57,176 bases of DNA from a virus (IMGVR_UViG_646564533_000015:1-57176), one strand, 5' to 3'; shown: positions 12,281 through 13,336, counted from the stretch's first letter. Translations and numbers: made by a program. Notes: generated by a model not told the origin, from the letters alone.

Positions 12281-12303
12281 AACTCCTGATAAAAAACCCA
12301 GCC
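12281..12303 (-). terminator. Rho-independent terminator after ant
   Basis: Minus-strand ACCCAGCTTCGGCTGGGT followed by TTTTTT; identical hairpin recurs at 40342-40364. Confidence 0.6.
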
Positions 12304-12331
12304 GAAGCTGGGTCATTTCGTTGGCAATCTG

Positions 12332-13336
12332 TTAGTAGTGATGTAGTGAAGGAGGTAATTCTTTGTTCTTAAGCCTTACCCATGCGGAAAGATTCGTTGG
12401 TCCGTCTGGCTCATTAATATCAACATCTCGTGTGTGATTGATTAAAACGTCTCTCGCCATTCCAATAACATACGAGAACTCATGACCGTAGTTGTAACAT
12501 CTGCCGGAATAGTTCGATTGAATTTGCTTTAGCGCTGGATACAATTCGCGGAATAATGCCTGTGAGCGGTTGGCATAATCCCATAGCCATACAAGGCTGT
12601 TTGCTTCTTTTGCGGAAAGCTCGTTGGTGCTCTTCTCTTGTTTGCCGATTAACTCTCCTTCAAGCGGAACGCGAGCAGCAAGTGACAGAGCTTCGGTAAA
12701 CTGCTCCTCGCTGATTTCTTTGTATGAACACCCAAAATGAGATTTCAGTGACGACCACATGGTGATCATCGCCTTCGCCTGTTTTTCTTTTGGCAGAGAC
12801 TGACCGCGACTCATGACGAGTTGTTTAATGGCTTCCTGCTGTTCAGTGGTGATTTTCCCCGGCAATGCCTTTTTAGCTTTGCGCGGGTTAATCACATGGC
12901 CTTTAGTCCAGTACTCGTAGAGCACATCGTCACACTCTTCCTGATACTGGATTACCTTGTCGCGGATTTCAGGGCGGACTTTGTTTGGTTGAATGCTTGA
13001 AAGCCAAGCCGCAAATTTACGAAAGGCAAGACATGTCATTAACTGTTTACCGCCAGCAGAAGGTATTTCGATTTCCGAAATACCTTTGACAAACCTCTGT
13101 TTTAACTTAACAAATTGAGCAGCCCAAACCATCCCCATACCTTCAACAACAGGCTTCATAGGAACATAAGGCTCATTGTTAATTCCAACCAAAAAGAGAT
13201 TTGTTCCGTGGAATGGAACATTGATTGTGCGATCTGCAATTGCTAAACTAGTCATATCAGTTTTCTCGTGGTTAACTGGTAATTTAGAAGCCTCAATGGT
13301 TGCAGCCATTGAGGCTTCGCTGTTTTTAGCGACCAT
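12332..13336 (-). CDS. ant: Antirepressor Ant (P22 AntA-type N-terminal domain)
   Basis: N-terminal ...VPFHGTNLFLVGINNEPYVPMKPVVEGMGM... typical of phage antirepressors; start chosen at MVAKN (GAGGTG RBS) overlapping the arc stop; C-terminal ~85 aa shared with 40384-41088. Confidence 0.75.
   Translation of the reverse strand: MVAKNSEASMAATIEASKLPVNHEKTDMTSLAIADRTINVPFHGTNLFLVGINNEPYVPMKPVVEGMGMVWAAQFVKLKQRFVKGISEIEIPSAGGKQLMTCLAFRKFAAWLSSIQPNKVRPEIRDKVIQYQEECDDVLYEYWTKGHVINPRKAKKALPGKITTEQQEAIKQLVMSRGQSLPKEKQAKAMITMWSSLKSHFGCSYKEISEEQFTEALSLAARVPLEGELIGKQEKSTNELSAKEANSLVWLWDYANRSQALFRELYPALKQIQSNYSGRCYNYGHEFSYVIGMARDVLINHTRDVDINEPDGPTNLSAWVRLKNKELPPSLHHY

Follow-up and report, generated by a model that had tools for sequence, protein, structure and literature searches.

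The stretch of DNA analysed here (IMGVR_UViG_646564533_000015:1-57176, 57,176 nucleotides (nt) in length and referred to below in its entirety as the window) is a lambdoid prophage with its borders, in which two different genes of antirepressor type, ant (gene A) and a second gene designated gene B, end in a near-identical sequence block. The block is present as two direct copies at an offset of 28052 nt, which have the same orientation, both host genes being encoded on the minus strand. The two copies, the genes to which they belong and the terminators that they contain are as follows.

12289..12646, minus strand: copy A of the repeat, comprising the terminator, a 21-nt spacer and the 104 P22_AR_C codons with which ant ends; repeat search, MAFFT and gapless comparison
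40341..40698, minus strand: copy B of the repeat, comprising the terminator, the spacer and the 104 P22_AR_C codons with which the ORF6N gene ends; repeat search, MAFFT and gapless comparison
12332..13255, minus strand: ant (gene A), P22_AR_N + P22_AR_C, 307 amino acids (aa), with the longest open reading frame (ORF) reaching 13336; Pfam, 1.2e-39 and 4.5e-29
40384..41088, minus strand: gene B, antirepressor-type protein with ORF6N + P22_AR_C, 234 aa; Pfam
12295..12314, minus strand: intrinsic terminator (t_ant homologue) downstream of ant, the ribosome-binding site (RBS) and ATG of tail gene K coming directly after it; terminator scan, fold -18.6 kcal/mol (66 nt)
40346..40367, minus strand: terminator after gene B, the same as after ant, then the RBS and ATG of a Rha/KilAC gene; terminator scan, fold -21.7 kcal/mol (66-nt context), z = -5.0

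The gapless comparison of 12289-12646 with 40341-40698 at offset 28052 showed that 335 of 358 nt (93.6%) are identical across the whole repeat, and the MAFFT alignment of both copies was in agreement with this result. A repeat search of the window likewise returned a two-copy direct family (12289-12588 against 40341-40640) at 95%. The near-identical two-copy repeat described in the original prediction was thus borne out by pairwise alignment, with its borders corrected to those given above. The terminator stretch (12289-12313) is identical at all 25 positions, which confirms the claim that both copies have the same hairpin, but the spacer between the stop codon and the hairpin (12314-12334) is not conserved (9/21 identical). 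In the coding part (12335-12646), 301 of 312 nt (96.5%) are identical, and the longest perfect run is 153 nt (12340-12492), followed by one of 78 nt; past 12646 the identity drops at once to 8/54. Since only five direct-repeat families of at least 40 nt exist in the 57-kb window, a chance origin of the repeat is excluded.

At the protein level, A and B have only their last 104 aa in common, of which 97 are identical, so that the common portion, formerly given as the last ~85 aa and ~330 bp of coding sequence, has to be corrected to 104 aa and 312 nt. Domain shuffling, which had been proposed from the same observation, was confirmed: gene A combines P22_AR_N with P22_AR_C (135.5 and 100.8 bits, both above the Pfam cut-offs) and gene B combines ORF6N with P22_AR_C, only the C-terminal domain being common to both. 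The 3' end of ant, which had been placed at 12332-13336, was kept; the start is more likely to be the ATG at 13255 than position 13336, because a sar-like RNA and its hairpin fill 13255-13321 and because a start at 13255 matches the 924-nt ant coding sequence of related records.

The elements found around ant, collectively called cassette A, and the two tail genes that enclose them are listed below.

13255..13321, plus strand: sar-like antisense RNA between arc and ant, with a 14-bp-stem terminator hairpin (13287-13318) and a T-run; Rfam sar RF00262 and terminator scan
13326..13499, minus strand: arc-like gene for a ribbon-helix-helix repressor, upstream of ant; Pfam Arc, 22.3 bits against a cut-off of 20.4
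13498..13573, no strand assigned: divergent promoter region, Pant-like (minus) and Pmnt-like (plus), with sites at 13526->13498 (minus, 10/12), 13573->13545 (minus) and 13520->13549 (plus); consensus matches only
13583..13927, plus strand: mnt-like gene for an Arc-family repressor, divergent from arc-ant; Pfam Arc, 1.8e-20, 72.9 bits, and synteny with P22 mnt
13918..13942, minus strand: hairpin with T-run immediately past the stop codon of L, then GGCATAATCC, forming the upstream edge of cassette A; terminator scan
13944..14669, minus strand: tail gene L, with cassette A beginning 1 nt past its stop codon (13944-13946); Pfam Phage_tail_L, 5e-92, and comparison with lambda
11540..12277, minus strand: tail gene K (JAB + NlpC/P60), whose RBS and start codon come from the end of cassette A; Pfam and comparison with lambda

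As judged from these predicted elements, cassette A is a complete "ant moron" of the P22 immI type (mnt, divergent promoters, arc, sar-like RNA, ant and terminator) that is inserted in the late operon exactly at the boundary of tail genes L and K. The term "ant morons" has been used for insertions in the late operons of P22-like phages, which show high flux (Villafane, Casjens et al. 2008, PMC2629481). The K start codon of lambda is located 5 nt past the L stop codon, whereas the window has a 1.65-kb insert at this place, the end of which provides K with a new RBS and ATG (12277); from 12258 onwards the sequence is again homologous to lambda K. The order annotated in the P22-pbi record (AF527608) is terminator, ant, Psar/sar, arc, operators and mnt, with which cassette A is syntenic, and the terminator after ant aligns with the one annotated there. 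As in P22 immI, mnt is divergent and is followed by arc and ant, the candidate antisense RNA lies between arc and ant at the position of sar, the same terminator follows ant, the cassette is situated within the late operon upstream of a tail gene, and DNA homology covers the ant 3' end and the terminator. Unlike in P22, the host phage is a lambda-like siphovirus that carries the cassette between L and K and not before the tailspike gene, the sar match is below the Rfam threshold, arc overlaps the longest ant ORF, and sieA/hkc-type genes are absent. The homologue of the arc-like gene is annotated as an Arc family DNA-binding protein in two related records (L001 and L002), and the Ant protein is 100% identical in aa sequence to that of phage WGPS8.

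Gene B is accompanied by a different set of elements, as listed below.

41365->41336, minus strand: promoter-like site of cassette B; 10/12 consensus match
41289-41342, minus strand: c4-a1b1 targets; Rfam, 47.8 bits (gathering score 46.7)
41252-41329, minus strand: isrK-type RNA with its own terminator, a terminator-like site being at 41273-41257; Rfam, 69.4 bits (gathering score 50)
41142..41226, minus strand: C4-type antisense RNA in the gene B leader; Rfam RF01695, 67 bits (gathering score 45), full length
39587..40315, minus strand: Rha + KilAC (ANT) gene that directly follows copy B and, in the nin region, is invariably the block's neighbour on the right; Pfam and flank classification

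On the strength of these matches, cassette B, which lies in the nin region of the early-right operon, is predicted to consist of a promoter, a1/b1 sites with an isrK-type RNA, a C4-type RNA, the ORF6N::P22_AR_C gene and the terminator. The closest 120 database relatives of gene B are all ORF6N + P22_AR_C proteins, and the family is very common in Escherichia coli/Shigella. The C4-like RNA contains GUUCCUAA, which is complementary to UUAGGAAC (8 nt) at 41304 and 41138, and UGGUUUC, which is complementary to GAAACCA (7 nt) at 41110, just 5' of the Shine-Dalgarno sequence and the ATG at 41088. By their complementarity, the short stretches at the RBS of gene B (8 nt at 41138 and 7 nt at 41110) are candidates for the a2/b2 sites. 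The only ORFs of at least 20 aa in the leader are ones that overlap the C4 RNA itself. This arrangement resembles immI of P1/P7 and isrK-orf45-anrP of Gifsy-1 in that a1/b1 sites, an isrK-type RNA with a terminator and a C4-type RNA precede an antirepressor-type gene, and in that the C4-like RNA is complementary to sites beside the RBS. Unlike in P1 and Gifsy-1, the small icd/orf45 ORF was not found between the C4 RNA of the window and gene B. The downstream protein of the window is ORF6N + P22_AR_C. The Gifsy-1 prophage is induced by an antirepressor-like protein whose translation is under the control of IsrK (Hershko-Shalev et al. 2016, PMC4825925).

To survey the block in other genomes, a 420-nt stretch containing the 358-nt block and short flanks was used as the query. 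The block was found in 1112 of 5426 complete E. coli genomes, at up to 6 places per genome, and at 240 places in 222 phage records; its DNA identity is 86.5% to the P22 ant 3' end and terminator, 94.1% to epsilon34 and 92.4% to CUS-3. Stx2a_WGPS8 and over 20 E. coli genomes have a tail-located copy that matches copy A at 100%, and the nin stretch 39587-41500 has no full-length match above 95.5% in the complete E. coli set. About ten distinct Shiga toxin (Stx) phages among the matches listed have two block places each. The same two-copy layout as in the window, with an ant cassette at tail L/K and an ORF6N-type gene beside Rha/KilAC in the nin region, 26-27.5 kb apart, was observed on inspection of four records, Stx2a_WGPS8 (AP012540), YYZ-2008 (NC_011356), Stx2a_WGPS6 and Stx1a_PV728; for Stx phages 1717 and 2851, the search likewise gave two block places each. 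In contrast to these Stx phages, the window prophage is located at ssrA, is without stx genes and has a different cI, and its copies are more alike (96.5% in the coding part, 153-nt run) than those of WGPS8 and PV728 (83%) or WGPS6 (89%).

We then compared the heads and flanks of the block in an IMG/VR survey consisting of the 80 loci closest to the domain. The heads are of the P22_AR_N type at 62 loci and of the ORF6N type at 13-14, with no other type among the 80, and the contexts are tail L/K at 32, nin at 15 and other or unclassified at 33. The 232-nt core of the block falls into two main allele classes, which are ~81% identical to each other, and each class occurs with antN as well as ORF6N heads and with K as well as Rha/KilAC flanks. 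The spacer was considered as a location-specific feature, which was rejected: 7 of 8 loci that combine a "nin-type" spacer with an antN head are tail L/K loci, and the spacer therefore travels with the allele class. The chimera Rha + repeat + antN, which is the reciprocal of the junction expected from a deletion between the two copies, has matches in three complete genomes. Since the allele classes reassort and since a junction of the reciprocal type is present in three genomes, we concluded that the block is a recombination joint in nature, which upholds the earlier proposal that the repeat is a recombination substrate.

The cassettes embedded in the nin region of other prophages present a similar picture. 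In the O55:H7 strain DEC5E (99.2%), the whole mnt-arc-ant cassette lies inside the ORF6N gene of the nin region; the 3' end of its ant has no differences from copy B of the window, the switch to antN occurs exactly at the domain border, and a partial P22_AR_C duplicate (about 74-80 nt) is left on the ORF6N pseudogene, joined to the mnt-side hairpin. The cassette of STEC346 is also inside an ORF6N gene and has the same junction with diverged sequence, that of RM10410 is in the nin region with a different left neighbour and junction, and that of L092 is beside Rha in the nin region. From the comparison of these nin-embedded cassettes it follows that the right-hand joint (P22_AR_C, terminator and Rha) is constant and the left side variable. 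The junction in DEC5E and STEC346 corresponds to a 15-nt near-identity, CGGT(G/T)GGCATAATCC, which occurs in the window at 13928-13942 (the cassette edge, 1 nt from the L stop codon) and at 12567-12581 (inside P22_AR_C). At the cassette edge this sequence may be either a relic of a former nested arrangement or a microhomology that arose by chance. In the CUS-3 record (CP000711), the stretch from the tailspike gene to ant, which covers the terminator, is labelled "bsq1; boundary sequence". The block is like such lambdoid boundary sequences in that the same terminator stretch is a constant joint across contexts, and unlike them in that the joint of the window runs through a whole protein domain (312 nt), beyond an intergenic linker.

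Taking these results together, we consider, with a probability of roughly 0.85, that the repeat is the common 3' end (P22_AR_C coding sequence and ant terminator) of two separate antirepressor cassettes in a lambdoid prophage, and that its near-identity results from recombination that moves allele classes between heads and locations. The two cassettes have different heads, P22_AR_N in one and ORF6N in the other, and different predicted control, by protein repressors and by antisense RNA respectively; the C-terminal domain and the terminator are the same exchangeable block. Partial transcription of each cassette in the lysogen would be required; the terminator most likely shields the cassette from the next gene, that is K or Rha-NinG-Q, and polymerase modified by Q or N would read through. 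The allele classes may move by recombination between phages or between the two resident copies. Beyond what the original prediction had noticed, copy A is part of a full P22 immI-type cassette, copy B is part of a C4/IsrK-controlled one, and the layout is already present in deposited Stx phages.

Several points weigh against this reading. The sar RF00262 match, although it covers the full-length model (E = 6e-4 in the local search), scores 29.5 bits and is below the gathering score of 43, and no convincing icd/orf45-like small ORF was found at 41141-41089 on the minus strand. A sequence search of the PDB gave no match for Ant, only a chance-level match for gene B (E about 0.06, Syncytin-1) and no solved P22_AR_C relative, and the AlphaFold2 model of gene B from a 22-sequence alignment was poor, with a predicted local distance difference test (pLDDT) score of 44.5; the common domain may thus serve for binding a target, for oligomerisation or for something else. 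The insulating role of the terminator would follow from its position before K and Rha-NinG-Q. Finally, the two-copy prophages that could be compared number six, which is too few to tell conversion from reassortment.

Misassembly or a chimeric join as the source of the repeat has a negligible probability and is effectively refuted, as the copies differ at 23 positions, their flanks are different and well conserved, and each flank recurs in hundreds of independent genomes. A more serious alternative is that the copies are kept alike by gene conversion inside the prophage (concerted evolution), perhaps with both antirepressors needing the same C-terminal specificity. The identity of the 312-nt coding part and the longest perfect run between the copies are 83.0% and 29 nt in WGPS8, 82.7% and 25 nt in PV728, 89.4% and 91 nt in WGPS6, and 96.5% and 153 nt in the window. 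For the 232-nt core, the two copies are 99% identical in the window, a value that would favour conversion, as would the IMG/VR contig 643348545_000013 (L094, L136), the copies of which are identical at 350 of 358 nt with a 188-nt perfect run and a core identity of 100%, although they belong to the other allele class (~81% identical to that of the window). In both prophages, moreover, the mismatches are concentrated in the 30-80 nt nearest the head, a pattern expected where a conversion tract ends; this hints at homogenisation within prophages. On the other side, the cores are only 81% identical in WGPS8 and PV728, 90% in WGPS6 and 95% in YYZ-2008, and a class match in two of six prophages is compatible with random reassortment. 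Because identity within an allele class is 99-100% even across unrelated prophages and because only six cases are available, we regard conversion as a rival that is possible but on the doubtful side, and prefer the exchange of allele classes between heads and locations.

The DEC5E arrangement raises a further possibility, namely that gene B derives from such a nest: an ant cassette would have been inserted into an ORF6N gene and later removed when the partial duplicate recombined with the full P22_AR_C, so that an ant-type C-terminus remained on the ORF6N head. The identity of the DEC5E ant 3' end with copy B through the whole repeat, the match of the partial duplicate to copy B from 12573 to beyond the domain border and the 98.95% identity between the window and DEC5E over NinG-Rha-terminator-P22_AR_C would all fit such a history; the ORF6N-side stretch 40619-42079, however, is only 86.7% identical to DEC5E, and the opposite direction, an insertion into a gene B like that of the window, explains the same data, so that we think this origin unlikely. 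It is an equally unlikely and speculative reading that P22_AR_C and the terminator serve as a docking sequence by which the ant cassette moves between the tail operon and the nin region through DEC5E-like nests, with conversion keeping the output domain of the protein-controlled and the RNA-controlled antirepressor matched, two independent inputs thereby converging on one effector specificity, and with crossovers being purged on account of the essential late genes that they remove.

It had also been predicted that a crossover between the two direct repeats would delete the intervening ~28 kb. RecA-dependent recombination in E. coli requires a minimum of 20-30 bp, and the repeat is physically adequate for RecA or Red. 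The geometry and the late-gene content of the interval were both confirmed, as it holds Q (38364-38846) and the genes for lysozyme, Rz, terminase, capsid, portal, tape measure and L. The occurrence or persistence of the deletion was not, its junction being absent everywhere searched. The junction K + repeat + ORF6N was found by megablast and blastn, with places counted from 80% query coverage upwards, in none of the 5426 complete E. coli genomes, and an ORF6N head with a K flank at none of the 80 IMG/VR loci. In an exact-anchor scan of IMG/VR, the combination of A-type spacer and ORF6N head expected from a deletion gave 0 hits, against 18 for A-type spacer + antN and 103 for B-type spacer + ORF6N, the two parental types; B-type spacer + antN gave 8. 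The survey of related prophages thus revealed no deletion variant. We consider it very unlikely that the repeat is chiefly an active deletion hotspot at which RecA or Red crossover regularly removes the 28 kb of late genes to give defective prophages, notwithstanding that the perfect runs of 153 and 78 nt are well above the RecA minimum, that the prophage encodes Bet/Exo homologues (by synteny with the related records L001 and L002) and that assemblies could miss rare, unfixed events. A deletion product would be without Q, lysis, head and most tail genes and could probably persist only in the form of a defective prophage; because essential late genes are lost, the outcome of a crossover between the copies would presumably not propagate as a phage.

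From their family membership, either protein would be expected to inactivate a repressor. Co-adaptation of Ant to the resident cI was considered and rejected, as prophages with a cI only 29-36% identical to that of the window have an Ant A that is 96-100% identical, and as the same immunity region (99.8%) is found without either cassette in the prophage of E. coli E2865 (L220, NZ_AP018808.1 3036000-3080000), in which L abuts K and the nin region has no antirepressor cassette. The head and tail genes of the E2865 prophage differ from those of the window. On both of these grounds, the cassettes appear to be accessory and not matched to the resident repressor, which would fit trans-acting or broad-range antirepressors; such antirepressors may be compared with those of Lemire et al. 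2011 as cited in PMC4825925.

With respect to domain architecture, P22_AR_N, P22_AR_C and ORF6N have been listed in a domain-swapping "Bro network" (PMC10111431), and the antirepressor domain structures in the prophages of O157 Sakai have already been drawn (Asadulghani et al. 2009, PMC2669165). P22_AR_C was found with P22_AR_N, ORF6N and KilA-N as partners, the last in one KilA-N + P22_AR_C protein obtained by a search with the 104-aa domain alone, which otherwise returned mostly fragments. Iyer, Koonin and Aravind, whose work is reference 36 of PMC10111431, reportedly described in 2002 a Bro-N/KilA-N network of domain-swapping phage regulators. P22_AR_N, P22_AR_C, ORF6N, ORF11CD3, Phage_pRha and ANT are members of this network, and the window, with four such genes in combinatorial architectures, differs from it in nothing essential and is one more example. 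A P22_AR_N + ORF11CD3 gene (189 aa; 30964-31533, minus strand) lies between the genes for lysozyme (31804-32337) and Rz (30316-30810) as a third Bro-network gene, and its head is 77% identical to ant at the DNA level over 146 nt (12878-13023 against 31174-31319). As this head resembles that of ant, P22_AR_N is also present twice in the window with different C-terminal partners, P22_AR_C and ORF11CD3. The repeat represents modular sharing of a known kind: its layout, the domains and the two regulatory modules have all been described or deposited before, and the current understanding is left unchanged. As a compact textbook example of modular evolution in phages, the window has four Bro-type genes, of which two have a common effector domain and terminator under different control logics. 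In Shiga-toxin-producing E. coli, recombination from one prophage to another could make use of the dispersed copies of the block.

The prophage is integrated at ssrA, with the transfer-messenger RNA at 698-1060. A 40-nt att direct repeat of the ssrA 3' end (39/40 identical) is located at 1025-1064 and 55746-55785, giving a prophage of about 54.7 kb, and the other marker genes are as follows.

53056-54240: integrase
45211-45861: LexA-like cI

Some additional features were observed in the window. Just downstream of the portal gene (22593-23957), an ORF at 21211-22596 on the minus strand contains a tandem array (21665-22450) of about five copies of a 162-nt (54-aa) unit with 85-95% identity; judging from overlapping alignments, the copy number is apparently different in the DEC5E prophage. 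The portal coding sequence is annotated as frameshifted or as a pseudogene in several related records. An IS3-family element (33282-34540, plus strand; transposase with an rve domain at 33485-34531) lies between the holin region and a SASA/DUF6645 esterase gene and may be polar on the late operon, and an Rfam match to isrC (33350-33472) falls within the region of this element. There are no stx genes at their usual position. Downstream of Q are the prophage small RNAs AgvB (36646-36707, plus strand) and STnc100 (36708-36901, minus strand) and three tRNA genes (Arg-tct, Arg-tcg and Met-cat; 37671-37922, minus strand), and in DEC5E the counterpart aligned with 36925-37677 consists of the DUF3927/TerB genes.

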